Shown here piece by piece: positions 2,354 through 42,700 of a stretch of DNA of 64,000 nt; within the stretch, counting starts at the first letter, position 1, and every line of letters begins with the position of its first letter. Under the pieces are notes generated by a model. It saw only the letters and a list, made by a program, of their open reading frames with translations. It searched no databases and was not told where the DNA came from. This stretch comes from a virus, in the IMG/VR virus record IMGVR_UViG_3300027833_000013, positions 64,001 to 128,000 of that record. One strand, given 5' to 3'. The position numbers and the translations under genes were made by a program.

Positions 2354-2427
2354 TGGAGCGGGTACGGAGAATCGAACTCCGGTCTAAAGGTTGGAAACCT
2401 TCAGCTCTACCATTAAGCTATACCCGC
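2354..2427 (-). tRNA. trnG: tRNA-Gly (anticodon TCC) with encoded CCA
   Basis: GCGGGTA TA GCTTAATGGTAGAGC T GAAGG TT-TCC-AA CCTTT AGAC CGGAG TTCGATT CTCCG TACCCGC T CCA folds as a complete cloverleaf. Confidence 0.96.
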
Positions 2428-14041: not shown

Positions 14042-14566
14042 AGTAGTTAGTGTATTAACTTCGTTAATACAAGTTATCGCTAACGCTCAAACTACTTACA
14101 CTTCGTTTTGATTAAATAATTTATAAATGAATTATAATTGCATTATTACGAATGTAATAATGTTTAAGTTTCATGTAGATTGTTTTAGTCAGACGGAACC
14201 TGTTTAAGGGTTCCATCTAATCTTGAGCTTCATGTGAGTCCGTCACAGCCGAGACATTGGAAGTAGGTAATTGTTTATACACAAAGTACAATGGGCTCTG
14301 ACCTTTCCCAACCTACGTCGACATTATGTTGCTTATAATATACAATGTACATTATATGTAACAATATTCCCTCGCTTCGTTCCTATTGCTAAAGAGTTTT
14401 TATGTACTGTGTTTGTGTTTTTCGACTGCCAACAATGCAATCTATATCAACCAGTGAGCCCAATTTGTTTGGTGGCTTCCTCCCTCTGGGGAGTCGATCA
14501 ATATGTACGTGTGCTTCTATACGAGAGCTTTTTCCACAGCGGTATTTCTAATCTGGCCCGCTAACC
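14042..14566 (-). ncRNA. Candidate large structured non-coding RNA / structured element
   Basis: ORF-poor gap of about 525 bp in a gene-dense genome. It has many hairpins, including a 12-bp stem at 14189-14220 whose mismatches are G-U pairs only on the minus strand, and several crossing long-range complementarities. Confidence 0.6.
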
Positions 14567-15001
14567 TTATGTGTTGGAATGTTTTGCCTGTAAATGTTCT
14601 TTAAGAATTTTTGATCCGCCAACTCTAACATTTATGATACCGTTGTAGTATTCATCTGTTTCAAGTACTCTGCGTTCAAACTGCTCTCGTGCCTCTAAGT
14701 AACTTGCTATGCCTCTGCTAGGACAAATATGAATAATTTCTCTTATGAAATGTTCTTCGCCTAACTCTAAAACGTCTGCATTAAGTCTATCACTGGAACC
14801 GTAATAAGTTTGCCAGTCACTTTCTTTAGTACTACGTCTTTTGTTTTTCTTGCCTTTGAGTGGTTTCTTTGTTACTTTGAATTTTGCTAGTTTTTTGCCT
14901 ACGTATTTCATGCCATTGACTTTGTTTGTTATCAAGTAAACAAATGCTTCACAACCTTCTGGTAGTTCGTCTATTGTTTCGCCTTGATAAGTCCATTGCA
15001 T
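14567..15001 (-). CDS. Stand-alone GIY-YIG endonuclease (EndoII/Seg-like catalytic domain only)
   Basis: FVYLITN...KYVGKK, YYGSS, conserved E (YLEARE) and YYN motifs; 144 aa, no C-terminal NUMOD/HTH domain. Confidence 0.85.
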   Translation of the reverse strand: MQWTYQGETIDELPEGCEAFVYLITNKVNGMKYVGKKLAKFKVTKKPLKGKKNKRRSTKESDWQTYYGSSDRLNADVLELGEEHFIREIIHICPSRGIASYLEAREQFERRVLETDEYYNGIINVRVGGSKILKEHLQAKHSNT

Positions 15002-15015
15002 ACAGATACTTACCG

Positions 15016-15222
15016 CTATTTGCCTTTTTCTGCCGCCTTTTTGGCTTTATACTTATCGTTGATCTCATCGCCTCTTATTTTAGCATGTTTTCTTATTTCT
15101 CTCAACCACTTTCTGCTTTCAGCATGTGTTCTATGAGACTCACGAGCTTCAAACTTTTCGTTCGCAGTAAAATAAGATAGATATGCCTTTACAAGCATGT
15201 CATGTGCATCATCTTCGATCAT
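15016..15222 (-). CDS. Small basic helical protein
   Basis: ATGA overlap with the gp46 stop; K/R-rich. Confidence 0.65.
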   Translation of the reverse strand: MIEDDAHDMLVKAYLSYFTANEKFEARESHRTHAESRKWLREIRKHAKIRGDEINDKYKAKKAAEKGK

Positions 15223-16991
15223 TCTATAATCTCAATATCATTTTCATATGATGTAAATCCGTTTTCCTTAACAACTTTCATTACGTTATTAACTCTTCCA
15301 ATAAGCTCATCCTTGTGAGAGATAAGAAATACATTCTTTTCGCCTTCTCTAGCCATCTTCTTAAGGACACCTAACGAATTTTCAACACCAGCAGTGTCCA
15401 TACCACTATCAATAAGTTCATCAATAAATAATAAGTTAATCTTTTGATATAAACTTTCCCAAACGTCACGGAATGCAAAACTCATACCTAAGATAAGTCT
15501 GTTACGTTCTCCGCGTGACAAGTTATCAAAGTCTAAGTCTTGACCTAACTGAGTAATTTCAACATTTAAGTCATTTAAGAATACTACTTGATGTGGTAAG
15601 CCGAGTTTGTCAAGATACATTGAAAGTCTATTGTTAAGATACATCAAGTTCTGATCAATAATCTTTTTACGGATAAAACTATCTTTATTAGTAAGAAGTT
15701 TTAATAAGAAGTCTTGGTGTTCTTTAAAACTAGTAAGCTCGTTTACTATATTCCAGTTAATCTCTTGCATTGCACTATTGTTTAATTCATCAATTTGTGC
15801 TTGATAAGGGTCTAATTCTTGTTCTTTACTATTTAATGCTTGCTTTAAGCTATCTACGTTAGTCCTATGGTCGTATGCTTCTTTAGCAGTATCATAAAAT
15901 GTAGTAGGCTTACCGTTAATATCACCGATATCACCGAGCCCTTTTGTAACATCGTTTACTTTAATAGTAATCTCAGACTGATACGCAATAGCATCAACAA
16001 GTTCTTTAGATTTACGTTCTGCAATCTCTGCCTTTTTGTCTGCATGTAGCTCTTGACCACATGTATAACATGTTGCATCGTCTAGTTCTGCAATGTCTTT
16101 ATTTGCCTTTTCAACAGTCTTGTCGGCACGTACTAATGCTGGTTCTAATGTACTTAATTCTTTTTTAAGAGCCAAAATAGCATTGTTATGCTGTGTCCAA
16201 TTAGACAACTTTTCATGCGACTCTAGTTCAGTGTTAATATCTAAGTGTTCTAGTTGATCGATGCCTAATTGTAGTTTTTTTACGTCTTGTTCATTTTTAG
16301 AAAGCCATGCACGTTGTGTACTTTGTAAACTCTCAATAGTTCCGCCGATCTTTTCATTAGCACTTTGGATAGCATTAATTTTTAATGTTTCTTCTTGGAT
16401 AGCATCTTTAGTTTTCTTAGTTTGTTCTTTAAGTGTATCGGCTTTTTCACTAAGGATGGTAATACCAAGTAGTTGTTCAATAATTGCACGTTGGTCGTTC
16501 TGCCGCATACTTAAAAATGGTTCAGTATAGGTGTTTAGTGCAAGTATATGCTTAAACATATCGTGACTCATGTCAAGCAAGTCGTTAATAAACTCCTGAG
16601 TCTTGCGACTGTCACCTTGTGACTCGTCTGTCATCTCTTGTTCGTGCTCATCAACATAAAACTTTAGTACATTAGGTGAACGTCCGCGCTCGATACGATA
16701 GTCAACATTGTTTTTTTCAAAATGCAGTGTAACAAGCATGCCTTTTGAGTTTGTTTTGTTGATTAAGTTGTTTTTCTTAATGTTAGTAAGTGCAGTACCG
16801 TACAATGCATAAGACAATGCATTAATGATAGTAGTTTTACCAGTACCGTTACGTGATCCACTATCGTCGCCTCCTTGATCTAAGTTTTCGCCTAGAACTA
16901 GTGTTAGGTTGTCTTTGTCAAAGTCTACGGCTTGGGTCTGATTGCCTACACTCATAAAGTTACGTACTGTAAGGTCTTTAATTTTTATCAT
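15219..16991 (-). CDS. gp46: Recombination endonuclease ATPase subunit (gp46 / SbcC / Rad50-like)
   Basis: Walker A NGTGKTT, coiled coil with CYTC zinc hook, LSRGE signature, Walker B LFIDE, ISH. Confidence 0.93.
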   Translation of the reverse strand: MIKIKDLTVRNFMSVGNQTQAVDFDKDNLTLVLGENLDQGGDDSGSRNGTGKTTIINALSYALYGTALTNIKKNNLINKTNSKGMLVTLHFEKNNVDYRIERGRSPNVLKFYVDEHEQEMTDESQGDSRKTQEFINDLLDMSHDMFKHILALNTYTEPFLSMRQNDQRAIIEQLLGITILSEKADTLKEQTKKTKDAIQEETLKINAIQSANEKIGGTIESLQSTQRAWLSKNEQDVKKLQLGIDQLEHLDINTELESHEKLSNWTQHNNAILALKKELSTLEPALVRADKTVEKANKDIAELDDATCYTCGQELHADKKAEIAERKSKELVDAIAYQSEITIKVNDVTKGLGDIGDINGKPTTFYDTAKEAYDHRTNVDSLKQALNSKEQELDPYQAQIDELNNSAMQEINWNIVNELTSFKEHQDFLLKLLTNKDSFIRKKIIDQNLMYLNNRLSMYLDKLGLPHQVVFLNDLNVEITQLGQDLDFDNLSRGERNRLILGMSFAFRDVWESLYQKINLLFIDELIDSGMDTAGVENSLGVLKKMAREGEKNVFLISHKDELIGRVNNVMKVVKENGFTSYENDIEIIE

Positions 16992-17998
16992 AGTTCGTTA
17001 TAAATATCCATTAGCATCTTCTTATCGAAGTTGTCTGAGTCAATTGCATTAATTTCTCCTGCAACAATTTGATCTACGCTTTCGAATTGTGCAATGTCTA
17101 GTTCTGTATTAATGTCTTCTAACTGTTTTTGTGGAATTAAACTAATTTCACGACAGTTGTAAGTATTAATAAACGTTTCTTTAATAAAACTTGCCTCTTC
17201 AAAGCTAATAGGCAAGTCTAAGTTAACACGTAGATACATATTAGGTTTAATAATTGTATCTGCTTCGTCGATTAATTGACTTAGTTTAATAGTACGGTAC
17301 TTGGGACAGTCAGGCCAGTTAAGGTATACTGGCTCAGCATCGTTTTCTCTATCGAGTATCATCATACCACGGTCATCATCCCATGCATCTGCATAGTTGT
17401 GCGGAAACGCATTACCTAAGTAATGTACCACGCCTTGTTGCTGACGTTTATGGAAGTGTCCACTAAAAACATAAGACTGATTAGCAAAGTCTTCTGCTCT
17501 AAGCTCTCCGTGGTCGGGCATCTGTACCATAGCGTTCATATAGAAGCTAGGTAGCTCAAAATGCCCAAATATATATTTGCTTTTTAGCTTTTTAAGTTTC
17601 TTCCATTCGTCGCCTACTAACCAAGGCACAATAGTAACATCCTCGATTGTTGTAAGTTCGTCGATAAATGTAATACCTGGAATATGTTTTGCAAATGCAG
17701 TACTATTAACGTCACGCTTGTCTTTATAATACAAGTCGTGGTTACCATCAAAGAAGAAGAACTGCTCAAAGGCAGCTCCTAGCTTCTCCATACAACGGAT
17801 AGTAGCATCCATAGTTGTAAGATTTAAACTGTTTCTATTATGGTGCCAATCACCACAAAAAATACCAGTCTCACAACCGTTGGTTTTTGCTTGTTCAATA
17901 TACCAATCAACAAAGTCTTCACAATCTTGATTGTGCATCTTGCTATTACCTTTTAATCCCAAGTGGATGTCGGTAAAGACTGCGGCTTTTTTAAACAA
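16988..17998 (-). CDS. gp47: Recombination endonuclease nuclease subunit (gp47 / SbcD / Mre11-like)
   Basis: Metallophosphoesterase motifs DIH, GDWHH, GNHD, GHFE, SGHFH; TTG start with GAGGA RBS. Confidence 0.93.
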   Translation of the reverse strand: MFKKAAVFTDIHLGLKGNSKMHNQDCEDFVDWYIEQAKTNGCETGIFCGDWHHNRNSLNLTTMDATIRCMEKLGAAFEQFFFFDGNHDLYYKDKRDVNSTAFAKHIPGITFIDELTTIEDVTIVPWLVGDEWKKLKKLKSKYIFGHFELPSFYMNAMVQMPDHGELRAEDFANQSYVFSGHFHKRQQQGVVHYLGNAFPHNYADAWDDDRGMMILDRENDAEPVYLNWPDCPKYRTIKLSQLIDEADTIIKPNMYLRVNLDLPISFEEASFIKETFINTYNCREISLIPQKQLEDINTELDIAQFESVDQIVAGEINAIDSDNFDKKMLMDIYNEL

Positions 17999-18025
17999 AT
18001 TTACGTCCTCTATGATTCAACTAAC

Positions 18026-18054
18026 ATTATACAACAAAATCTCAATAAGATCAA
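18026..18054 (-). promoter_or_regulatory. Sigma70-type promoter for gp47-gp46
   Basis: TTGATC-17 bp-TATAAT. Confidence 0.6.
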
Positions 18055-18058
18055 TGAC

Positions 18059-18895
18059 TTATTTGGAAGATTTCATTTTATCGGTTTCTCGTTTCTGCTC
18101 TGCTTCCCATTGTCCTTGATTTTGTCTAGTAAAGCTAGGATTCATATTGTTCATTTCTAGAATGTCATCACGGATGTTCTGCGCACGTTTTTCAATATTA
18201 ATAACACGTACAAAACTATTAGTAACTGCGGCAGTGTAATATGCAAACGGATTATCCGACTTAGATTCATCAAACTGTAAACCAATTTGTGCTAATTGTA
18301 GAATAGCTTGTCCGCGCATTTCGTCGTTGTATGTGTAACCACGTACATTGCCTCGAGTAGCATAACGATCACAAAGTTTCATCCACATCATAGCAAGTTT
18401 ATTAGTTGCCTTTCCGTGTGTTTTGTCAAAATGTCCATTTTCCATGCCACCTGCCCAATGACTCTTTCCTACTAATATTAAATCACCGTCATCATTGTAC
18501 TTGTAATGATGAAAAGGTGGAAAATTAAGTTTTGTTTTAGTATCGGCAATAGTTTTTGGGTTCTTTTTACGTCCGGGCTCTTCTGGAATATGATCAAACG
18601 TCATTACACGGAAGATCAATTCTTCCTTAGTAATTGTTTTATAATCTACTTCGCATTCTGCTTGTTTAACTTTATGTCCCAAGCCTTTTCTCCGCTCAAA
18701 TTCAGCAGTCGACATTTTCTTTGCTTTAGCACGTTTAGCTTCAGCAACTGTTAGTCTATTAATTTTTCCAATATCAAGTACAATAAGATCAAACATAGCA
18801 TGTGATTCTTCTGTAAAACTACAGAATGTACTTTTTGATTTATGTATTTCTTTTAATATATCTTTGTTATTTAGGTAATTTACACGTCTAGCCAT
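18059..18895 (-). CDS. gp55: Late-transcription sigma factor (T4 gp55-like)
   Basis: NYLNNKDIL, GYTYNDEM, FDESKSDNPFAYYT...NSFVRVINIEKR; adjacent to gp47/gp46 as in T4-like phages. Confidence 0.85.
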   Translation of the reverse strand: MARRVNYLNNKDILKEIHKSKSTFCSFTEESHAMFDLIVLDIGKINRLTVAEAKRAKAKKMSTAEFERRKGLGHKVKQAECEVDYKTITKEELIFRVMTFDHIPEEPGRKKNPKTIADTKTKLNFPPFHHYKYNDDGDLILVGKSHWAGGMENGHFDKTHGKATNKLAMMWMKLCDRYATRGNVRGYTYNDEMRGQAILQLAQIGLQFDESKSDNPFAYYTAAVTNSFVRVINIEKRAQNIRDDILEMNNMNPSFTRQNQGQWEAEQKRETDKMKSSK

Positions 18896-18925
18896 TACTT
18901 CTCCAAGTTATAAGATGTTACATAC

Positions 18926-18954
18926 ATTATAATATACATACATTAAAAAGTCAA
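18926..18954 (-). promoter_or_regulatory. Sigma70-type promoter for gp55
   Basis: TTGACT-17 bp-TATAAT. Confidence 0.7.
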
Positions 18955-18955
18955 C

Positions 18956-18961
18956 TAAATA
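18956..18961 (+). promoter_or_regulatory. Late promoter core (TAAATA) for baseplate operon
   Basis: CTAAATAACACTATAAGAAGGAG upstream of ATG 18983. Confidence 0.6.
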
Positions 18962-18982
18962 ACACTATAAGAAGGAGATATT

Positions 18983-19837
18983 ATGCCAGGTCGAAATCCA
19001 TTTACAAGTTTACAAGAAACTTTTGGTAGTGCTATTAATGTTGTAAGTACATTAAAAAGAACAGTAGACACTGTATCTGCGTTTGCCGACAACCCTTTAG
19101 GATTTATGAAAAACATTCGTAGTGCAAACCTCCAACCAGATGCAATGCCAACGTTTAAATCAAATACTAGTGCTATAGTTAAAAGTCCTAGAGGCGAAAA
19201 CGACTGGCGTGTAAGTTTAAGCGTTCCGCCTATAATGAAAGGAATGCCCAAAACATTATTACAGCCTTTAGTTAACACAAATAATAGAATGGTATTTCCT
19301 TTTACGCCGTCTATTATATTTTCTCATTCTGCAAGCTACAATGCATTGCAACCTACACATACTAATTATCCATTTTTTAACTATCAAAGTTCAGCTGTGG
19401 ACGCTATAACTATTGCAGGCGACTTTTTTGTTGAAAATGCAGAAGATGCAGAGTATTGGGTTGCGGCAGTTACTTATTTGCGTACTGTAACTAAAATGTT
19501 TTATGGCACCGGCGCGAATTTAGGTAATCCTCCGCCAATTATTAAACTAAATGGGTACGGAGAGTTTGTTTTTAACAATGTGCCGTGTGTAGTAACTGCA
19601 TTTAATATTGATTTACCGCAAGACGTGGATTATATTAAAACTACAATGGGAGGATCAACAACACCTGGCAATCATCATGCTGATCCTGTAACTACTGAAG
19701 GTGCCGATACATGGGTTCCAGCACAAAGTTTAATATCAGTAACAGTACAACCAATATACAGTAGAGCTAGACAAGCTGAATTTAATTTAAACGATTTTGT
19801 TAGTGGTAAACTAATAACAGGTAAAGGAATGATTTAA
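18983..19837 (+). CDS. Baseplate tail-tube initiator/cap protein (gp48/gp54-like)
   Basis: MVFPFTPSI, GNPPPIIKLNGYG, FNNVPCVV are tube-fold baseplate motifs; first gene of the baseplate operon. Confidence 0.6.
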   Translation: MPGRNPFTSLQETFGSAINVVSTLKRTVDTVSAFADNPLGFMKNIRSANLQPDAMPTFKSNTSAIVKSPRGENDWRVSLSVPPIMKGMPKTLLQPLVNTNNRMVFPFTPSIIFSHSASYNALQPTHTNYPFFNYQSSAVDAITIAGDFFVENAEDAEYWVAAVTYLRTVTKMFYGTGANLGNPPPIIKLNGYGEFVFNNVPCVVTAFNIDLPQDVDYIKTTMGGSTTPGNHHADPVTTEGADTWVPAQSLISVTVQPIYSRARQAEFNLNDFVSGKLITGKGMI

Positions 19838-30200: not shown

Positions 30201-30736
30201 GTTACGGCGCTGAGTTAGATAAGATTAAAAGTATTAGTGACGAAGTAATATACCATCCAGTAAAGTACAAAATACTTTTTGGATCAGCCGCGGAGAATAG
30301 TTTGCAAGCAACGTTTAAAATTGTTAAAAATACAGAAACTGTATCCAACGATAATGAAGTAAAGTCAAATGTAATTAATGCAATGAATGAATATTTTAGT
30401 TTGGAAAACTGGGAGTTTGGTGAATCATTTTACTTCTCAGAACTCTCAACTTACATAATGAATCAACTTGCACCTTCAATTAGTTCTATAGTAATTGTTC
30501 CAAGCGACGACTTACTATCATTTGGATCGTTGTATGAAATAAACTCAGAATCTGATGAAATTTTCATAAGTGGTGCAACTGTAGAAAATGTAGAAATAAT
30601 AGATACTATTACTGCAACTAAACTAAAATCCTCAGGCACTGTTATTACAGCAAGCACTGAAGTTTCAAATACTGGAATACAAAGTTCGAGTACTGCATAT
30701 ACGTCCACTATCAACACCGGAGGCTCGAGCTACTAA
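27260..30736 (+). CDS. gp6: Baseplate wedge protein gp6-like
   Basis: DFDNLR, ENFLELAERRESVLRLARLLSYNPKR, FSDGTFG, QNRMVTAEDY; TAAATA at 27229-27234. Confidence 0.88.
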   Translation: MSTTDRQNRLLVAENWKRIYQSFRNADFQSYDFDNLRRTMIAYLRTNYPEDFNDYIESSEYLALIDLIAFLGQNISFRIDLNARENFLELAERRESVLRLARLLSYNPKRNQAAQGLLKVTSVSTTEEVVDSNNFNLANQQIQWNDPTNTDWYEQFIKVMNSALPANGTFGRPLKKEIVDGVPNEQYRFNAVNTDIPTYGFTKTVQGKSLQFEVVSTDLNTDTKNAEEEIPLTANSFAYLYKDDSRGPASSNTGFFCTFKQGSLDSGQFVVNTPTTNQVIDIDAANINNDDVWLYKLDASGQESEYWTKVDAVEGNNIIYNSVSKKIRSVYSVLTRVSDRISLVFSDGTFGELPQGVFKVFYRTSNNQSYVIKPTDMTGIQIKVPYLSRSNTVETITLNLELKYTVANSSTSETNESIKQNAPSTYYTQNRMVTAEDYNVAPLGISQDIIKVKSVNRFASGISRYYDLLDATGKYSSTNLYANDGIIYKENLVNKDSFTYITQTDIESAITNKIEPILKDRRVLNYYLTNFTKVITSDLKAEWVQTTSDTNRGTGHLIDESDVKYKVGTFTANNLRLLEAGSLLKFEAPTGYHFLVGDKTTLIAGAVGAPNTLMYKWVKVISVNGDGTTNTTSGLGPIVLNDSIPTQALLTEIRPKLTTSINDSVKVQIIDQAFANNTFGLRYDVGTRQWRLITEVNLDTISDFSTGKTGDVSSQNLDASWLLWFKTDGEKYNITYRAMRYVYESDNEIKFYYDSSDKIYDNKTGKIIKDKIQVLSINTQPMLTLPFTSDYNFEITKEYRDADGYVDSKKVEISFFDADDDGVVDNPGSFVDIVNETVSPTTKYIFQKKYTTTDGVEDYQYVTQTSQNILVLTSESAIGAYSSYDALTIFFAIDTGLFKQLSSDKLLLTQISNFKAFIGRADLKFRYVHAADNNKRIDPSSTNLIDTYLLTRLYDTSYRKWLNGDLTTKPLPPSSDQLYRSYGAELDKIKSISDEVIYHPVKYKILFGSAAENSLQATFKIVKNTETVSNDNEVKSNVINAMNEYFSLENWEFGESFYFSELSTYIMNQLAPSISSIVIVPSDDLLSFGSLYEINSESDEIFISGATVENVEIIDTITATKLKSSGTVITASTEVSNTGIQSSSTAYTSTINTGGSSY

Positions 30737-33700
30737 TGGCTTATAATGATGACCAAAACGAATATCCACTTCCAGTTAATGGCAAATCTAATAGAAAGTC
30801 TGCGGAGTTACTTCCGAGATACTTCCGTACTGAGACAAATACTAAGTTTTTAAACGCAACATTAGATCAGGTTACTACGCCTGGCACTGCAAAAAAACTT
30901 AATGGGTATTATGGCAGAAAAACTGCAAATGCATATTCTCCTAAAGATATCTATTTAGGAGATGTTACAGCTCAACGAGAAACTTATCAGTTAGAACCGT
31001 CGTTAATATCTAAAGACTTACTCGGCAATGTATTATTTTATAAAGATTATAATGATTTTAGAAATCAACTTAGTGTATTAGGCGGTAGTGTATCAAATGA
31101 AAGTTTATTAAACAGCCAAGAGTACTATGCATGGAACCCTAATTTAGATTGGGATAAACTTGCTAACTTTAGAGAATATTACTGGTTACCAAATGGTCCT
31201 GCAAACGTAACAGTCTTTGGCCAAAATGATGATGTAACTAGTACGTACACAGTTTCAAGTGTAGATAATTTAGGCAATAGAGGATACACATTTAACGGTA
31301 ATTTAACACAAAATCCAACATTAGAATTATATAGAGGTCAAACTTACATATTTGATATAGATGCCGCTGGGTTGCCACTTACTTTCAGAACATCGAGAGC
31401 TATCGAAAGCGATAACGAGTATGCAATCGGCATAACTAATTCAGGAACTGATACTGGATCGATTACGTTTACTGTGCCACTTGAAGCACCAGACAGATTA
31501 TACTATGTTGCCCAAACAGATATTAATACTGGTGGAACAATTAGAATTGCAGATATAGAATCAAACACTTCTATAGATGTTGCAACTGATATTTTAAATA
31601 AAAAAACATACACTACTGCAAATGGATTTGCATTAATGAATGGTATGAAAATTAAGTTTGAAGGAACTGTTACTCCTGAAATATATGCAACCAATACCTG
31701 GTATGTTGAAGGTGTCGGTGACAAGATTAAATTAATTAAAGATACTGATCTTACTATTCCGCAAGCATATTCCGCAGACATCAATGTATTGTTTGATGCT
31801 AATCCTTTTGATAATTTACCTTATAGTAGAGCAAACTCTTATAGTGCAACAAAAGATTATATTGTTATTAATCGTAGTTCACCTGATAAAAGTGCTTGGG
31901 CAAGAAACAACAGATGGTTCCACAAATCAGTGCTTGAAAAAACAGCTGAACTAAATGGTGAAGTATTTAACATTGATCAAAGTGCAAGAGCAAAGCGTCC
32001 TATTATTGAATTCAATGCAGGACTAAAATTATTTGAATTTGGTACAGAAGCCAAAACAGAAAATGTAGATTTAATTGATACTTTTACTACTGATGTATTT
32101 TCTACAATCAACGGCAAAGAAGGTTATAGCATTGACGGCGTTGATATTACTGACGGTATGCGCATATTGTTTACAGCGGATACCGACCTGCTTGTAAAAG
32201 ATAAGATATACAAAGTTAAATTTATTAAACATAATTCAACAGTAGCGCAAATAGCGTTAATAGAAGAATCGGATACTCTTCCTATTGCTAATCAAGTTGC
32301 ACTAATAATTGCTGGTACTAATGCCGGTAAACAATATTATTATAACGGCTATGCTTGGAAATTAGCACAATATAAGTCTACTGCAAATCAACCCCCGTTA
32401 TTTGAGATATTTGATGATTTAGGATATAGTTATACTGATTCATCAACGTATCCAGTAAGTGATTTTATAGGTAATAAACTGTTTAGTTATAAAGTAGGAA
32501 CTGGAAAGGCTGATATCGAATTAGGTTTTCCTATTACATATAAGTCACTTGAAAATGTAGGCGATATAACGTTTGATTTTAATTTAGTAACAGATTCATT
32601 TAATTATCAAATTAATAATACTCCGTTATCTAAAAACACAGACGTTGGATTCTGTAAAGTATATACTGACATTACTAGTTTTGAATATTGCAATGGATGG
32701 GCAACGACAAAAACTAACACAGTTCAAAAAGTTATTAGGCAATATGATGTTGCTACTGCACAGGCAGATTTTGCAATCGATGTTTATGACAAAAGCGGTA
32801 CACTAACTGACTTAACAGTTGCCGTACAAGTAAACAGTGCTTGGAGATTTGACTATACGCTTGTAACTGTAGACAATGTAAAAACTGTTAGATTTGCAAT
32901 AGCAATACCTGCAAACAGTAGTGTTGTAATTAAAACTAATAGCAACACTATTAAAAATGCTAACGGCTATTATGAATTTCCGCATGCAATGGAAAAGAAT
33001 CCACAGAATGAAAATCTTAGTTCCTTTACACTCGGCGAAGTAAACGATCATGTATTTTCAATGCTTGAAGACTTGCCGGGATTTGCAGGAACATTTCCTG
33101 GACCGAGCAACCTTGGCAATTTAGGAAACATAAATCCGTATGGTAAAAAGTTTCTACAGTATGCCGGATCTGCCAACATATCTGCTTATCACATTACAGA
33201 CAAAGATGCAAACATAATCAAAGCAATTGATCATGCAAGGCGCGAATATAGAAAGTTTAAAAGATCATTTATGCAAGTAGCAGAAACTCTTGGATATGAT
33301 GGCCCGACTAAACAACACGTTGATTTAGTATTAAAAGAAGTTAATAAAGATAAAACAAAAACAGACTCGTATCACTTTAGTGACATGGTACCATATGAAG
33401 GTGCAAAGCGTTTAGAATTCACAGTTTATGATACAGAAAATACTTTCTTTTCACTAAGTGAAAAATTTAGTTTAGATACGTTATCATCTAAAGCATTATT
33501 GGTATATCAAAATGGTACACAGTTAATTCATAATAAAGATTACACATTCAATTTAGATGGATTTGTTGTAATTACTGCAACTAAAGCAAAAGACGATTTA
33601 ATAGAAATATATGAATTTGGCAACACAGACGGCTGCTACGTACCTTCGACTCCTAGTAAGTTGGGATTATTTCCAACGTTTTATCCTACATTAATTTCTG

Positions 33701-36700
33701 ATAGTACGTATCAAACAGCTACTAATATAATACAAGGGCATGACGGTAGTAAAACTGTTGCATACAACGATTACAGAGACGATTTGTTATTGGACCTTGA
33801 AAAGAGAATATTTAACAATATTAAAGCAAAGTATGATACTACTAGATTAGATATTAACGACTTTGTACCAGGAAACGATAGAAATACTAAATTTACTAGT
33901 GTACAAGTTAATAATGGAATGATGTTTGACTTTGTGCAATGGACTGAAAGTTTAGGTAATATTGATTATTCTAGTAGTAGTGATTTTTACAGTAGAGATA
34001 ATAGCTTTACTTGGAACTATTCTCAAATGGCATCTTGGGACGGCACGTCTCTAAGAGGATTTTGGAGAGCAGTTTATAAAAGTGCTTATGACACAGATCG
34101 TCCTCATACACACCCTTGGGAAATGCTAGGATTTAGTATTATGCCCACATGGTGGGAAGCACAATATGGACCAGCACCGTATACAAGTGATAACTTAGTA
34201 TTATGGGAAGATTTACAAGAAGGTAGAGTAAATGTTCCAGGTGCATCTATAAAAATTATTAACAAATATAAAAGAAGTAACTTATTAAAGCATATTCCTG
34301 TTAACAACAGTGGTCAACTGTTAAGTCCACAAGACTCGGGATACACATCAGGAGTTGTATCAAACATAGATGCATCGTTTACATTTGGTGACGAAGCACC
34401 GGCTGAAACTGCTTGGAGACGTAGTGGCGAATATCCGTTTAGTTTAATTAAGTCTTGGGTGTTAAATCAACCTAATAAAGTAATTGGTTTAGGGTTTGAT
34501 ACGTCAAGAATGAAAAAATCTATTGCAGGACAATGGATATACACAAACTCGGGTAAAGCTATATCTCCAAAAGATATATTATATCCTAATACAATAACAG
34601 ACTCTAACGAAGTACTTACAAGTGGATTAGTTAACTATGTTATTGATTATTTAACTTCGGAAGCAACATCTGACGTTGCAACATATAAGTCAAAATTTAG
34701 TTTAATTAAAAATCAATTAGGTATTAAACTAGGGTCGTTTACTGACAATGAAAAACTAAGATTTATATTAGATAGCAGAACTCCGTTTAACAAAGGTAAT
34801 GTATTTCTTCCTAAAGAAAATTATAATATTTTCCTTAATAAAAGCTCACCGCTAACTGTTGCATCTTATAGTGGCGTAATGGTCGAAAAAGCACCTAAAG
34901 GATTTATTGTCCGTGGGTATGATAGTACTAACCCTATATTTAAATACACTATACCAAAAACGTCTGCTACTGATCCGACAATTACTGTTGGTGGTATATC
35001 AGAAGCATTTCTTGATTGGGATGCAGGAAAGAGATACTTAACAGGTTCCAATATAAAGCACAATAATGTATTTTATAGAGTAATAGATACTCATACTAGT
35101 GGCAACACATTTGACACTGAATACTTTCAAAAAATAGCACAACTTCCATTGACAGGCGGAGTAACAGCGTTATATAGGCGCACATTTGAAAATACTGATA
35201 CAACAGTACCATACGGCACAATACTAGATACTGTACAAGATGTAGTTGACTTTTTACTTGGATACGAAAATTATTTAACATCACAAGGTTTTGCGTTTGA
35301 TTATTATAATACAGAGCAACAGGTTGTAGAAGATTGGAAATTAAGTACAAAAGAATTTATGTATTTTACAACACAGAATTGGTCAGCTGGCACTGTAATA
35401 TCTCTAAGTCCGGCAGCAACACGATTGCGCTTTAAATCAAATTATGCAGTTGTAGACGACTTATACGATAGCTTCTATAACTATAGCATATTAAATGCAA
35501 ATGGTCAAAAGGTACCTGAAACTGTTACTAGATTAAACAGAGAAGATGGTGTATTCCAGATGCAGTTAAGAGATTCTGTAGACGGAATATACCATGCTGT
35601 ACTACCGCAAGTGCAATTTGAACACGTTGCTGTCTTAGATAACGTATCAGATTTTAAAGACGTAATTTATAGTCCTGCTACGGGATATCGACAAGAGCGT
35701 ATTAAGGTATTAGGATATGTTGCTTCGGGTTGGAACGGAAGTTTAAACATTCCAGGCTTTGTATTTGATAACGCAGAAGTTACTGAATGGGAATCATGGA
35801 CTGATTATGCAATAAGCAGTGTTGTAAAATATAAAGAATTTTATTATAGTGCAAGAGTTGATATTACTGGCAATGAAGCATTTGATTCTGCAGTTTGGGT
35901 TCGTTTAGATAAACGCCCAGAATCAAAATTAATGCCAAACTTTGATTATAAAATTAATCAATTTGCAGACTTTTATGATCTTGATTCAGACAATTTTGAT
36001 TCCGAACAGCAGAAAATGGCACAGCATCTAATAGGTTATCAAAAGCGTCAGTATTTAGAAAATATTATTAACGATGACGTTAGTCAGTATAAATTCTATC
36101 AAGGAATGATTGCTGACAAGGGCACACGTAATAGTATTGATAAATTATTTGATAGTTTAGCAAGTGCTGACAAAGACAGTGTTGACTTTTATGAAGAATG
36201 GGCAATTAAGTCAGCACAGTACGGAGCAAGTACAGGGTTTGAAGAAATTGAATATCAGTTAGATGAATCTAAGTTTAAATTAGAACCACAACCTATTGAG
36301 TTGGTTGATGTAGTACCAACAGCAACAACTGATTTGACTTATAGAATACCACATCATGACGTGTTCTTAAAACCAACAAATTACGAAACAACTAGACTAC
36401 CGACAAAATTTTTAGATACTGAATATGTAAAAACAGTTGGATACGTTACCGGAGATGATGTTAATAGAGCAGTAAATAGCCCTGCAGGCATATTAGCTTT
36501 CAACCCAGCAGAACTTGATAAAGGCGCATATGTTTGGGTATCGAGTAATAGCCAGTCTTGGGACGTACTAAAACATGTAAACAGTGACATTATAATTAAT
36601 ACTGTTTCAGTAGACGGTCCGACAGTATCACTATCATGTGATAAGACAGTGGCTCTTGAAGTTGGTGATATTATTGGCCTTTACAATGTTGATCAAATTG

Positions 36701-39700
36701 TCGGAACTGATTCAGCACCAACAGTTACTGAAGCGTTTTACACTGTTTCAGATGTTTACAATAATACAATTGAAATTACTTCAGATAATGCTGATTGGCA
36801 AAAAGTTGAAACACTAACTAACATCAACGGAATAATTACAAAATTTATATCTCAGCGTGTTGCTACATTAGCAACAGCAAATGATTTAAGTACTACTAAT
36901 TTAAAGTCTTTAGAGGTTATATGGGTAGACGATGACGATACTGGCAAGTGGAGAGTAATTAAAAATTCTCCAGTATATTCACAAGCACAGACACTTAAAA
37001 GTTCTTTGTCATTAGACAGTACTCAGCATAACTTTGGACATAGTATTGCTGTAAACAAATCTAATACGTTGTTAGCAGTTGGTATTCCTGATAAAGGCAA
37101 TGGCGAAGTACATGTGTTTAAGCGCAGTAGTGATGCAAACAATTTAGTATTTGATCAAACTATTACAGCACCAACGTCATACGTTGATACATATGACGGT
37201 AGTACTGAAGTTACATCTCAGAAGTTCGGCGAGAGTGTTTCATTTAGTCCAGATGGCAAATATTTAATTATTGGTTCTCCGCATGCAAGTAACGTAAAAA
37301 CTGCATACAAAGGCGACTACGTTCCCGGAAGTGACTATAACAAAAATGAAATTATTAAGTTTGGACCCAACTTGTTTAAAGCAGTTGCGGTAATTGACGG
37401 AGCAGTTGATTCTATTCCATATACAACATTTGATTCGTATCCGAATTTAGTGTCAGAGACTGATAGTACTACACTTAACTTATTACAAACAGGCAACTAT
37501 AAACTTAATAGCAAGCCTAATACTACACATATACTAGTTAGAGCACCTAAGGAAGCATACGAAGGTTCAAAAACTGGCGACAATATTGTATTAAAGTGGA
37601 ACAACTACAGTAACATAAACACACAAGGATGCAATGTATCAGTTGAGCCGTTTGATGGACAGTTCCCTGAAATTACAGGCGCATTATTGTCTGACATTCA
37701 TCCTATTGTAGCAAAAGTAGAAAACGTATTATATATTGCAAACTTTCAAAACTTACCAGGCATAGGACAAACAGTAAACAGTGCAGTTGCAAGTGGGACA
37801 GTTTCTTATGTAGGTGACAGTGACGGCGCTGCCGTTGTATATGTTTCTGACGTTAATGGTACATTTGCAGAAACAGGACAAATAGCAATTGGTAATATTG
37901 CAATTGGAGATTATACAGAAGATTATCAAAATCCGACAGCAGAAGTTGGCGGATATTGGATGATAACTACCCCTGCATACGAAACAGCGGCAGATAGTTC
38001 AAATGTATTTACTGATCCAGGACACGGATTAATATATCAAGACATTATTAAGCAAGACTCTGCTAGAACACCTAACTATTATTACAATATACAAGACACT
38101 ATTCAAGCTATTGGGGCAAAGGTATCTGCAAATGATCAGGCTTCGTTTATTGAAAGCTTCACATATGAAGGTGACCCAAATGAAGTATTTGCTGTACAGG
38201 AATCTAACAAATGGGCAATACGTGTTCCTAAAGCATTTTCAGATACTAAAACAGCCGGCGATCAATTTTATCTTTTCTTAGATGATCAGAGTGGAATAGT
38301 TGATTTAGCAGGTACTGCATTTACTTTTGATATTACAAACAAGCAACATACTATTAATGAAGTGCTTGACGGCTACATTGATTTTGTGTTTGACAACTTT
38401 AGTACAGTAACACAGTTACCGTTTGAACCTGCAATAGGCGACATAGTACGTGATGCATCCAGCGGTGCAACGGCTGAAGTAGCATTTTACAAAAGACAAT
38501 TTAATGACATACGAATTTATGTTAAAAATGTTACAGGTGCCTGGAGCTTAGGCGACACTTACGGACAAACAGCAGACATTATTAGAAATGGCACGCCAAA
38601 CAGAACAATGGGCGAAATCAAAGCAGTATCACTTGGCTCTTCAGAAGTTGGCAAGATTTTTGTTATTGAAGAAACTAGTAATTTTGCAAGTGTTGCAACT
38701 ACACAACTACTTGATAAAGAATACTGGATTTACGATGAAATTATATTACAGGGTATTGCAAGAAGTGCAAACGTACCGTCAAGTAATAACAATGATTGGA
38801 AACAAGTTAACAACATTCTTGCAAGTAATTCATCAAATGCATCTGCAAGCGGACTACTACAAGAAGGTATGATATCTGTTTATACATTAAATGAAATAGC
38901 ACAATTTGATTATGATAGTTCGTATGTAATACCAGAAAGACAAAATTATAAAAGATTTGGCGACGAAATACAAATAACACAAACTGGTACTGGAGTAAAG
39001 GCATTATACAGAGTTGCAGTAGCTTCCGGCGGAAACGCTACAGAATCTAACCCGGGTAGCATACATTTTATTAAACACGGATCGTCTAATACTGTAGGAA
39101 ATACATACGAAACATACCAATGGCAGTTAGACATTAATCCTTTGTTTAAAGGACAATTTACTTCAACAGTGTTTTACAAAGTAAATGAAATTGTTAATTA
39201 TAACGGCATTTTATATAGTGCAAAAATTAACATTGCAAGCGGATCGGCATTTGTGCCAAGTAGTTGGACAGAACTATCTAACACAACTACGCATGTTGGA
39301 TATATTCCTAGTACTCCGGAACAGCTATTGATAGGCGAAGACATTTACTCACCAGAGGGCGGAATTAGAGACTTTGCTCAAAAGTTTGATCAAGACGACG
39401 CAGGCGAAGTATTAATTACAAGTACTAAAATACAAGGTAATGATAGTACAGGCGAAAGAGCAGTTAATGTATATAGACAAGTTAATGGACAATTTACTAT
39501 ATCACAAACAATTACATCACCGTATATTGACGTAAGTACAGATACTCTTACAGGATATGCTGATGCAATAGCAATTAGTGCAGATGGTACTATGATTGCA
39601 ATAGGCGAACCGTATAACAATTCAATTGAAATTCAGCAAGGTAAAGTGTATCTTTATAAATTAACTAACGGTACATTTACATTATCACAGACATTGTTCA

Positions 39701-42700
39701 GTCACAATAATGAAGTAGCAGAACAATTTGGCAGTGCTGTTGGATTTGATGGCAATCAGTTAGCAGTAACATCGTTACAAGGCGACATTGAGATAGCTAC
39801 AACATACGATGCCGATACAACATACTTTGATAATAAGTTTACTAACTTTAAGAAAGTAAACATGGATAGCGGAGTTATTTACATATATGAAAGAATTAAC
39901 AATACTCTAGTATATGCAGAACAATTTATATTTGATGATTATGATTCAATGTTGTTTGGTAAAAATTTATTAGTAAGTAATAACCATGTGTATGCAAGTA
40001 TGCCTAGAATGACAGACTATACTACATATCAAGGTATGGTTGTTGATTATAGAAAAGTATTGGGTAAAACAGCATGGGTTACACACAGAAGCCCATTAGA
40101 TCAAGTTGACTTAACTAATATAAAAAGTGCATTCCTGTATAACACTAAAACTAATACATTAATTTCAGATATTGATATTATTGATCCAGTACAAGGAAAA
40201 ATTCCAGGCACAGCAGAACAAGAATTAAGCTTCAAAACATATTACGATCCGGCATCTTACAATGTAGGAGATGCTAGTGTTGTAGTAGATAAATTAGCAA
40301 GTTGGACCAACAATACAGTAGGCAAATTATGGTGGGATTTAAGTGCAGTTAAGTACTACAACTACTACCAAAATGATATTACATACCAGACTAACTTTTG
40401 GGCAGAAGTATTTCCAGGCACATCTATTGATGTGTATGAGTGGGTAGAATCAAATATTATTCCAAGTGAATGGGATTCGATAGCAGATACAGAACAAGGC
40501 ATTGCATCTGGTATAAGTGGATTAAGCAAGTACGGCGATACGATATACAGTCAAGCACTAGTATGGGACAACATTGCCGCAACGTCAACAGTAAAATACT
40601 TCTTCTGGGTGCTAAACAAGCGTACAATTCCAAATGTAGATTTTAGATTATTATCAGCACAACAAGTACAGACGCTTATTAAAGACCCTGCAGGTTCGGG
40701 ATATAAATTTGCCGCACTTATGTCTAAAGATAGATTTGCGTTGTTTAACGTATCTAATTTAATTAATAATAAAGATGTTGCACTTAATATACGTTATTGG
40801 ACTACAGAAAATAAAAATCAAAACGTACATAATGAATATCAATTAATATCACAGGGTGTTGCAAATAGCAAACCTAATAAAGATATTGAACGCAAATGGT
40901 TTGATAGTTTAATTGGGTATGATATTAAAGATAGACTAGTTCCAGATCCTTCTTTAAGTGTTAAAACAAAATATGGAATTCAAGACAGGCCAAGACAGGG
41001 TATATTTGTAAACCGTGAAGAAGCCCTAAAGCAAGTGGTTGAAAGAGTTAACGATACTTTGAAAAAACATATTATTGTTGATGAATTTGATATTAGTAAT
41101 TTAGTTAAGAGTGATCCAGCACCTGCCAATAGTACATTATTGTTTGATGCAGTAATTGAAACATTTGAAGATTTACAGTTCTTGGGAATAGCAAACAAAA
41201 CAATACCGACATTAACACCTACTATTACTGATGGAGAAGTTGTACAAGTATTAATTACTGCAACTGGTAGAGGATACATTGATCCTTCATATGTTAGCGG
41301 GACTAGAAAAGGTCCAAAAATTACTGTTAACGGTATTGGCACAGGAGCAGAAGTTGAATGTACATTAAATGAACTAGGACAGATTGCTACTGTTAATATT
41401 ATTAACGCAGGTGAAGGGTACGATGAAAATACAACACTAACTGTAAGAAATTTTGCCGCTTTAGTTACAACAGATTCAAATGTTTCAAATAAGTGGAGCA
41501 TATACGATTTAGTTGATAATAAGTGGGTAAGACGTGTAAGTCAGCGTTATGATACAAACTTATACTGGAAATATGCAGACTGGTATGCACCAGGGTATAA
41601 TAACTTTACGGCAGTGGTTGATTTAATCTCAGCAAGTTATTTGTTAGATAGTTTAGTTGATAACGACATTGGTGACACAGTAAAAATTGAGAACGTCGGA
41701 TCCGGCGGTTGGCTATTACTTGAAAAAATTGATAACCAGATTAATGTTGATTACACTGTGAACTATAAGACAGTTGGCAAACAAAATGCAACTATACAAT
41801 TTATTGATACGTTATATAATGTTAGTAAAAGTAAAATAGGATTTGATAGTAATAACTATGATACTGTGTTCTTTGATGCACAGCCTGTTACTGAAACTAG
41901 AATAATACTTGAAACAATTAGAGATAATTTGTTTGTTGATAATTTAGAAGCAGAGTATAATACATTATTCTTGGCTAGTGTCAGATATGCATTCAGTGAA
42001 CAACCAAATATTGACTGGGCGTTTAAAACTAGCTTTGTAAAAGCACAACATAACTTAGGTGATCTTGCACAAAAAGTTACATTTAAAAATGATAACTTAG
42101 AAAGCTATCAAACTTATATAAACGAAGTCAAGCCATATAAAACTAAGGTTAGAGAATACGTAAGTTCGTTTACTAATACAGACCTTACTAGTACTACAAC
42201 TGCTGACTTTGATTTATCACCCAAGTATGATGTTGCAGAAGGCAAGATAACAGCGTCTAATGCAAAAGTATCAAGCACTAATGTTTATGGTGAAAGAGAT
42301 GTATCTTCATATCCAGACAAACATTGGTTTGATAATGTTGGTTACAAAATTACAAGTGTTGATATTGGTAATAAAGGAACTGCATATACATTGCCCCCAG
42401 TAGTTAAGTTTGAAGGCGGCGGCGGCACAGGTGCTACTGCAAAGGCGTTCTTAAATAATGGTAAGTTAAGTGAAATAAAAATATTAACACAAGGTAGTGG
42501 ATATATTAGCGCACCAACAGTAGTACTTGACGGTGGCCTGAGTGATACAGGAACAATTGGCAGGGCAACTGCAATACTAGGCAATGGCGTAGTTAGAGGT
42601 ACTAAAGTTTCGTTTAAATTTGATAGAGTAAGCGGAGTACCTTATATTACTACACTAGCTACAACAGAAACTTTTAATGGAACTGGTAGTAAATTTAACT

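Follow-up and report, generated by a model that had tools for sequence, protein, structure and literature searches.

We analysed a stretch of 64,000 nucleotides (the window), comprising bases 64001-128000 of a 169-kb linear viral contig (G000; 47% complete according to CheckV) from an uncultured, giant T4-like phage. On its minus strand, the genes for the late sigma factor, gp47 and gp46 are followed by a 68-aa basic ORF, a 144-aa GIY-YIG ORF, a gap of 560 nt, variable ORFs and the baseplate hub, and the genes downstream of the gap are unrelated from phage to phage. An initial annotation of the window had drawn attention to an ORF-poor gap that starts at the GIY-YIG stop codon without an intervening terminator; this is the longest gap of the whole contig, and we found no terminator-like site in its 560 nt. 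The co-oriented upstream gene block probably supplies read-through transcription into the element described below. The 68-aa basic protein (15016-15222, minus strand), which is conserved between gp46 and the nuclease, has no match in Pfam or PHROG, and is a possible nucleic-acid-binding partner. Elsewhere in the window, the tail/baseplate region contains an ORF of 4933 aa (30736-45537, plus strand). The features of the locus, in minus-strand order, are as follows:

15016-18895, minus strand: genes for the late sigma factor, gp47/SbcD, gp46/SbcC and the 68-aa basic protein, co-oriented with the element
14567-15001, minus strand: gene for a small GIY-YIG nuclease of 144 aa (Pfam SegE_GIY-YIG, PHROG 447)
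14170-14577, minus strand: structured RNA body ("type A" twin-box RNA) of about 410 nt, which in this genome shares its 5' end with the final codons of the nuclease gene
14425-14575, minus strand: 5' domain of the RNA, with many two-sided changes
14538-14562, minus strand: first hairpin (14562-58 with 14542-38), whose loop 14557-53 can pair over a long range with 14253-48
14259-14407, minus strand: knotted core, with helices from the covariation model
14229-14235, minus strand: box 1 (ACAUGAA), after an invariant CUC, from homologue comparison
14192-14217, minus strand: 9-bp hairpin between the boxes, from the covariation model
14170-14176, minus strand: box 2 (ACAUGAA), after an invariant UCU, from homologue comparison; probable end of the folded RNA and putative site of an RNA-DNA hybrid
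14141-14162, plus strand: first downstream hairpin, whose loop in homologues is usually C-GNA-G on the template strand
14106-14140, no strand assigned: 35 nt with an A+T content of 91%, which ranks in the top 0.02% of comparable windows of the contig; a candidate for an unwinding element
14077-14089, minus strand: short hairpin containing tandem G-A pairs, with a loop of the GNNA kind; 133 of 222 loci have it, and its stem covaries from GC/GC to GT/AC
14051-14071, minus strand: 9-bp hairpin whose C-GAA-G triloop lies on the sense (non-template) strand; no hairpin of this loop class in the contig is longer

The nuclease matches the Pfam family SegE_GIY-YIG (PF19835) with an E-value of 9e-33 and 113.6 bits (cut-off 25), and is thus of the SegE type. 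It has no sequence beyond the catalytic domain, as the initial annotation had supposed, and the basic loop noted there corresponds to an insert that is predicted to form a beta-hairpin (residues 40-60). Foldseek and PDB sequence searches with the nuclease returned no significant match, and a wide structural search recovered GIY-YIG folds; the predicted fold gave a Z score of 8.1 against the I-TevI catalytic domain (rmsd 2.5, 78 aligned) and of 5.0 against T4 endonuclease II (EndoII). The predicted structure is that of a plain GIY-YIG domain carrying a basic beta-hairpin: it shares the fold of EndoII and the I-TevI catalytic domain, but the identity to them is only 14-20%, and the basic beta-hairpin insert sets the window's family apart. 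T4 EndoII is itself a GIY-YIG nuclease that likely has no separate DNA-binding domain and binds DNA as a tetramer, so the missing DNA-binding domain in our protein need not mean an RNA partner (PMC2764454). In PHROG 447 and many GenBank records, the family bears the name "NAD synthetase", apparently a mis-annotation that has been propagated.

Using nhmmer profiles for homologue detection, we saw a conserved structured element in hundreds of aquatic phage contigs. Among 80 viral loci fetched via the nuclease, nearly all of those with enough sequence have a gap of 370-920 nt past the stop codon, and in most loci this gap aligns to that of the window, with both conservation and covariation downstream of the homologous nuclease genes. 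A model of 76 pairs that includes at least four pseudoknots was 96.5% paired in 66 homologues of full length, whose columns are on average 61% identical, as against 32-42% in slid controls, and 33 of its pairs showed two-sided changes, amounting to 395 cells versus 102 in shuffles; the model was partly built from the same sequences, and the counts per helix weigh more than these totals. The strong covariation of the homologues is found despite a single-sequence fold that is modestly better than that of shuffles (z of -1.84 for the minus strand and -0.79 for the plus strand). One-sided G-U changes, including those in the inner 9 bp of a 12-bp stem recognised earlier, fix the minus strand as that of the RNA, in accordance with the suggestion that it is co-oriented with the nuclease. 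On these comparative grounds, we consider the element to be a real, heavily knotted large RNA that is not catalogued, and the large pseudoknotted minus-strand element that had been proposed to lie behind the nuclease gene is thereby upheld in outline.

The 5' domain consists of a 5'-end pseudoknot (14575-72 with the loop 14434-31), hairpins within 14537-14509, a long stem (14504-14495 with 14453-44) and a hairpin at 14441-14425. In the core, a long-range helix (14407-03 with 14290-86) is crossed by another (14316-11 with 14268-63); the loop of a hairpin at 14396-14369 can pair with 14262-59 and 14321-19, and there are also a hairpin at 14310-14292 and a variable AU insert near 14362-14328. The 5'-end pseudoknot and both crossing helices of the core covary. 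Three further long-range helices are nearly invariant and, if unproven, plausible. The pairs formed by the loop 14557-53 with 14253-48 are conserved and almost invariant, and UGAC (14191-88), which follows the inter-box hairpin, may pair with the loop 14302-14299, where we saw no compensatory change. A self-complementary GUCGAC in the core (14318-14323, minus strand), conserved though altered in some homologues, is a possible dimerisation site.

All of the motifs listed in the initial annotation exist as sequence. Among the helices that it had drawn, AGCGG/CCGCT (99% paired in the 66 homologues), GTAGGT/ACCTAC (98.5%) and the inner 9 bp of the 12-bp stem (98.5%) hold, CTCCC/GGGAG does so as a variable insert, and the direct repeat around the stem persists across the 66 homologues. 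The long AU stem is present in the window as a variable insert that is often absent from homologues. Four helices failed in the pair counts, among them TCGACT/AGTCGA (65% paired in the 66 homologues) and TGTGA/TCACA (82%, with no compensatory change); GCCA/TGGC clashes with two covarying helices. Although the RNA does contain pseudoknots, they differ from both long-range pairs proposed, which are the other two that failed: TGGGCTC/GAGCCCA is 67% paired with two compensating positions and competes with a covarying local hairpin, and TAGATTG/CAATCTA is 87% paired with zero compensatory change, its 5' strand being taken by a covarying local hairpin. Two features had been overlooked, that is, the twin boxes changing in step and the downstream hairpins of the single-stranded DNA type.

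Rfam models found only a tRNA in the window, and in the gap, as had been recommended for checking, there was no match at the gathering level nor at an E-value of 10, save a chance match of 15 bits. A tRNA-Gly(TCC) at 2354-2427 (minus strand) is the sole tRNA of the contig. The closest catalogued relative came from a second RNA type found at the same locus (type B), the 5' third of which is the Rfam motif Polynucleobacter-1, with 90-103 bits against RF01718; in type B loci, the RF01718 matches lie directly behind the same GIY-YIG family. Polynucleobacter-1 has been described downstream of a conserved family of small genes (GOS11034 / PSSM2_218-like), of which a cyanophage may carry a homologue (Weinberg et al. 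2010, PMC2864571 and its Additional file 1). The window's RNA resembles type B in its first hairpin and in the 3' twin-box module, but its middle core differs, and the catalogued motif covers only 141 positions, without the boxes. RF01718, whose members score at least 37 bits, has no match in the window or the genome even at an E-value of 10; type A is therefore a sister of Polynucleobacter-1, not a member, and we regard the element, as far as sequence relationships tell, as an uncatalogued large RNA variant related to it. Further types (including type C) and mosaics exist, all of which end in a similar box-hairpin-box module, and the window's element has the order CUC-box, hairpin, UCU-box with identical boxes that characterizes the extended, uncatalogued twin-box group (types A, B and C). 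In one mosaic RNA (L372:2900-3700), the first 152 positions match type A and the remainder resembles type C.

Several other known RNAs were considered and rejected. The pieces thought to recall CR-I and CR-V of RNase P/MRP RNA are, respectively, a covarying local hairpin and part of a variable insert that many homologues lack, and Rfam gave no match; nor did any Rfam model of GOLLD, ROOL or OLE match. The element is like these last three and HEARO/OMEGA in being a large ornate RNA that is phage-borne or lies beside a small nuclease gene, but it differs from HEARO/OMEGA, for which there was also no Rfam match, in that the nuclease is GIY-YIG rather than HNH or RuvC, its locus has a fixed place between gp46 and the hub region, and RNA and nuclease do not strictly co-occur. 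A group I intron with a GIY-YIG ORF does not fit the uninterrupted flanking ORFs, the varying downstream gene and the lack of an Rfam match. In bacterial genomes, we found only chance matches and phage-like contigs inside two MAG records. Two loci with the element and the same gp46-nuclease neighbourhood (L334 and L335) lie in a Neomarinimicrobiota MAG; they are probably mis-binned phage DNA, and Neomarinimicrobiota is a weak host lead.

Near the 3' end of the RNA in the window, the two 7-nt boxes lie 59 nt apart; across loci, the spacing is 49-67 nt and not a multiple of three, with no reading-frame constraint. The boxes are identical to each other in 113 of 114 type A loci and in all 105 type B loci, as well as in 87 of 89 metagenome loci when box 2 was left unconstrained in the scan, while the words vary between phages. 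The word has changed in step in both boxes at least 12 times in type A and at least 29 times in type B, counts that derive from rough trees and may be too high. At the flanking positions +8 and +9, transitions are one-directional: G at box 1 goes with A at box 2 (36:0 and 60:0) and U at box 1 with C at box 2 (20:0 and 16:0), the reverse combinations were never seen, and the one-way pattern is repeated in the metagenome loci (48:0 and 18:0). Such a pattern would be expected if box 1 paired, with G-U wobble allowed, to the complement of box 2, for which the comparison suggests the element's own template strand as the simplest candidate. However, position +8 of box 1 is nearly fixed as G, and the flank asymmetry could therefore have another cause; a minority of the +8/+9 combinations are plain mismatches, and position +10 shows no asymmetry. 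A covariation scan of the RNA revealed no internal complementary partner of the boxes. Counts of the own box word in the loci show neither enrichment nor depletion, and palindromic targets of it were not found. A TIGR-Tas or C/D-like two-guide RNP, which would have an array of repeated guide units and a DNA target in two halves, does not fit: the element is single-copy in G000 and no inverted box pair occurs there.

Past box 2, the whole downstream cassette of the window occupies 14162-14051, with the AT-rich stretch between hairpins. Hairpins with a C-GNA-G triloop or of the GNNA kind occur on the template strand at +7 to +60 in 137 of 222 loci (2 on the sense strand) and on the sense strand at +60 to +300 in 130 of 222 (none on the template strand), the expectation for strand-specific hairpins from shuffles being less than 1. 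The first downstream hairpin of the window has a variant 4-nt loop, GAAT on the template strand. Triloops are almost confined to the part downstream of the RNA body, and similar hairpins also trail nuclease-free copies of the RNA. GNA triloops, which alone among triloops yield stable DNA mini-hairpins, are the signature of these, and such hairpins are found at the initiation sites of G4, ssiA and N4 (PMC13037366). The locus shares with the G4 origin, RSF1010 ssiA and the N4 promoters C-GNA-G / GNNA mini-hairpins on exposed single strands (PMC13037366), in this case on opposite strands, but differs from these signals in that its hairpins lie behind a 410-nt structured RNA gene.

We propose that the element is an RNA-primed replication origin working like the RNA II of ColE1, a reading drawn from sequence comparison to which we assign a probability of about 0.5. 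The RNA would be made by read-through from the gp47-gp46-nuclease operon, or from a promoter of its own in stand-alone copies. Once the polymerase has moved past box 2, the folded RNA would present box 1 for pairing with the template DNA of box 2, and this pairing would nucleate or hold a persistent R-loop; box 1 would therefore follow box 2 through any change of word. Helicase and primase could then be loaded at the AT-rich stretch, once opened, and at the mini-hairpins of both strands, and the RNA or its processed end would prime DNA synthesis, with the GIY-YIG protein being at most an optional accessory that, for example, trims or resolves the structure. In ColE1, an RNA of 550 nt forms a persistent hybrid through rG/template-dC pairing (PMC4412123, PMC5043065). 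The proposal has in common with it a long RNA that folds and ends at the origin, a segment of this RNA that pairs with template DNA further downstream, and an exposed strand used for helicase loading with no need for an own initiator; it differs in that the pairing segment is a variable 7-nt word rather than a G/C run and in that the RNA is multiply pseudoknotted, and homology of the ColE1 type was not found, there being no sequence match in 72,556 plasmids. T4 oriF and oriG are likewise origins of a T4-like phage at which a transcript enters an unwinding element and forms a persistent hybrid, which here is proposed, but they consist of a middle promoter and an unwinding element, without a large folded RNA or twin boxes (PMC4412123).

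The origin reading is consistent with the small phages that carry the element. Three complete phages of 30-31 kb (L420-L423 in G006 and G001; and G007) have no recognisable polymerase or helicase, and searches of them for Pol B, a DnaB-type helicase and a reverse transcriptase gave no match; the presence of the conserved unit of RNA, twin boxes and opposite-strand DNA hairpins in such phages fits a ColE1-like origin. No replication initiator was recognised in two of the three; however, small phages often use initiators that escape recognition, which counts against this reading. Also to be counted against it are the occurrence of mini-hairpins at transcription starts (N4), the variant loop of the window's first hairpin, the complete lack of wobble in the 7-nt core, for which the model has no explanation, and the absence of types A, B and C from all cultured phages and plasmids searched. 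The major switch of gene strand and the cumulative GC-skew minimum lie at about 18900-19400 of the window, some 5 kb from the element, so that most genes on either side point away from it; as the skew minimum tracks the strand switch, it is uninformative and gives no independent support for an origin. An upstream AGGCA repeat proved apparent only, being not enriched relative to a control region. The motif TAAATA precedes 4 of 34 ORFs in G006 and 7 of 37 in G001, whereas random windows, whose A+T content is lower than that of intergenic DNA, would give 0.6 and 1.8; in G000 it precedes 39 of 147 ORFs. The 30-31 kb phages may be satellites of giant phages.

The initial annotation had instead taken the RNA for a guide or scaffold of the minimal GIY-YIG nuclease, in which case the two boxes might guide a dimer. 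The nuclease lies just upstream of the RNA in 55 of 61 type A and 90 of 93 type B viral loci, and its basic beta-hairpin would suit such a role, but gp46 is likewise upstream in most of them, and the linkage is confounded because synteny with gp46 is shared. Two small unrelated phages keep both parts in reversed order, with the RNA before the GIY-YIG gene (L086 and L137, in G006 and G007), which speaks for some link; their RNA subtype resembles that of the giant-phage locus L114. On the other hand, each part is found without the other: one complete 30-kb phage and 9 of 42 metagenome contigs have the RNA without the nuclease, and no such RNA adjoins the nuclease homologues of Melnitz (73% identity), S-SRM01, phiN3, Moby and several gp46-linked loci. 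At L429, the RNA stands behind a probable Holliday-junction-resolvase-like gene and no GIY-YIG gene follows gp46; at L431, L483, L490 and L500, its neighbours are small genes of unrelated kinds, and it may there be a second copy within a giant genome. Moreover, the RNA type switches about 25 times on the nuclease tree (a few labels stem from incomplete contigs), and nucleases that are 98-99% identical adjoin different box words or RNA types, which also led us to reject a box specificity encoded by the nuclease. With no palindromic target in sight either, we judge a boxes-guided nuclease dimer very improbable and the hoped-for RNA-guided nuclease in general unlikely; the sequences rather suggest that the nuclease is a loosely associated neighbour of the RNA, not a dedicated RNA-guided enzyme.

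Other readings leave the nuclease aside. The RNA could be a free-standing, trans-acting ncRNA (a scaffold, sponge or ribozyme) that shows its word twice so as to read an external RNA or DNA in two copies, the DNA signal downstream being a separate matter. Its fold, far more elaborate than a primer seems to need, its invariant core and the GNRA tetraloops enriched in its body are in keeping with this, and the flank asymmetry would arise equally from a partner with a perfect match to box 2 and a wobble match to box 1; but an outside target would have to co-mutate dozens of times, none was found by word enrichment or depletion in the loci or as an inverted pair in G000, and the downstream DNA hairpins stay with the RNA in other contexts, so that we hold this to be unlikely. 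A reading of the entire element as single-stranded DNA that folds and serves as a single-strand origin or packaging-type signal, with no functional RNA, is quite unlikely. In its favour are the DNA type of the adjacent hairpins, a C-GAA-G triloop in one of the variable inserts and some GNYA loops in type B; however, the many one-sided G-U/G-T changes and long-range pseudoknots speak for RNA, GNRA loops outnumber GNYA loops in the body (type A, 30 vs 13; type B, 48 vs 22) with nearly all triloops downstream of it, and the motif of the sister type B was judged probably RNA by Weinberg et al. (PMC2864571). A cis-acting transcription device, in which box 1 swaps into the RNA-DNA hybrid at box 2 and thereby terminates, pauses or anti-terminates the gp47-gp46 read-through, would account for the same box constraint, and the identical-plus-wobble stretch of 9 nt is about the length of a polymerase hybrid in a gap that has no intrinsic terminator. 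Nevertheless, it leaves the hairpins on both DNA strands and the AT-rich stretch unexplained, and it would act on downstream genes that are unrelated between phages; we find it distinctly improbable. Direct repeats that are forced to stay identical are typical of template realignment, and the boxes might accordingly be repeats at which a reverse transcriptase jumps on its template, in rolling copying of a telomerase-like or DRT2-like kind. This is highly improbable, as no reverse transcriptase was found in G000 or the three complete small phages, the spacing varies over 49-67 nt free of any reading frame, and the wobble direction disfavours a copy of box 1 re-pairing to box 2; a neogene or rolling-circle template is unlikely on the same grounds of spacing and missing reverse transcriptase.

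To return to the RNA-primed origin, we know of no established account of how replication starts in the abundant uncultured T4-like giant phages of lakes and oceans, nor of a function assigned to Polynucleobacter-1 since 2010. Taken jointly, the observations might, as a tentative reading that we rather doubt, describe a replicon class of giant aquatic phages not described before, in which a multi-pseudoknot RNA reads its own template via a recodable 7-nt twin box and opens a mini-hairpin-flanked origin; 30-kb phages without replication genes would have captured the cassette, some together with the GIY-YIG nuclease, and would possibly borrow the replication machinery of the giant. If the origin model is true, one conserved cassette would name the origin of giant phages and give Polynucleobacter-1 a role, and it would be a second natural example of a large folded RNA pairing back onto its own DNA, by a short recodable code that could be tested in vitro without the phage. 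Even without the origin model, structural and functional work would have a strong target in a 410-nt RNA that combines at least four pseudoknots with a pair of boxes mutating in concert.
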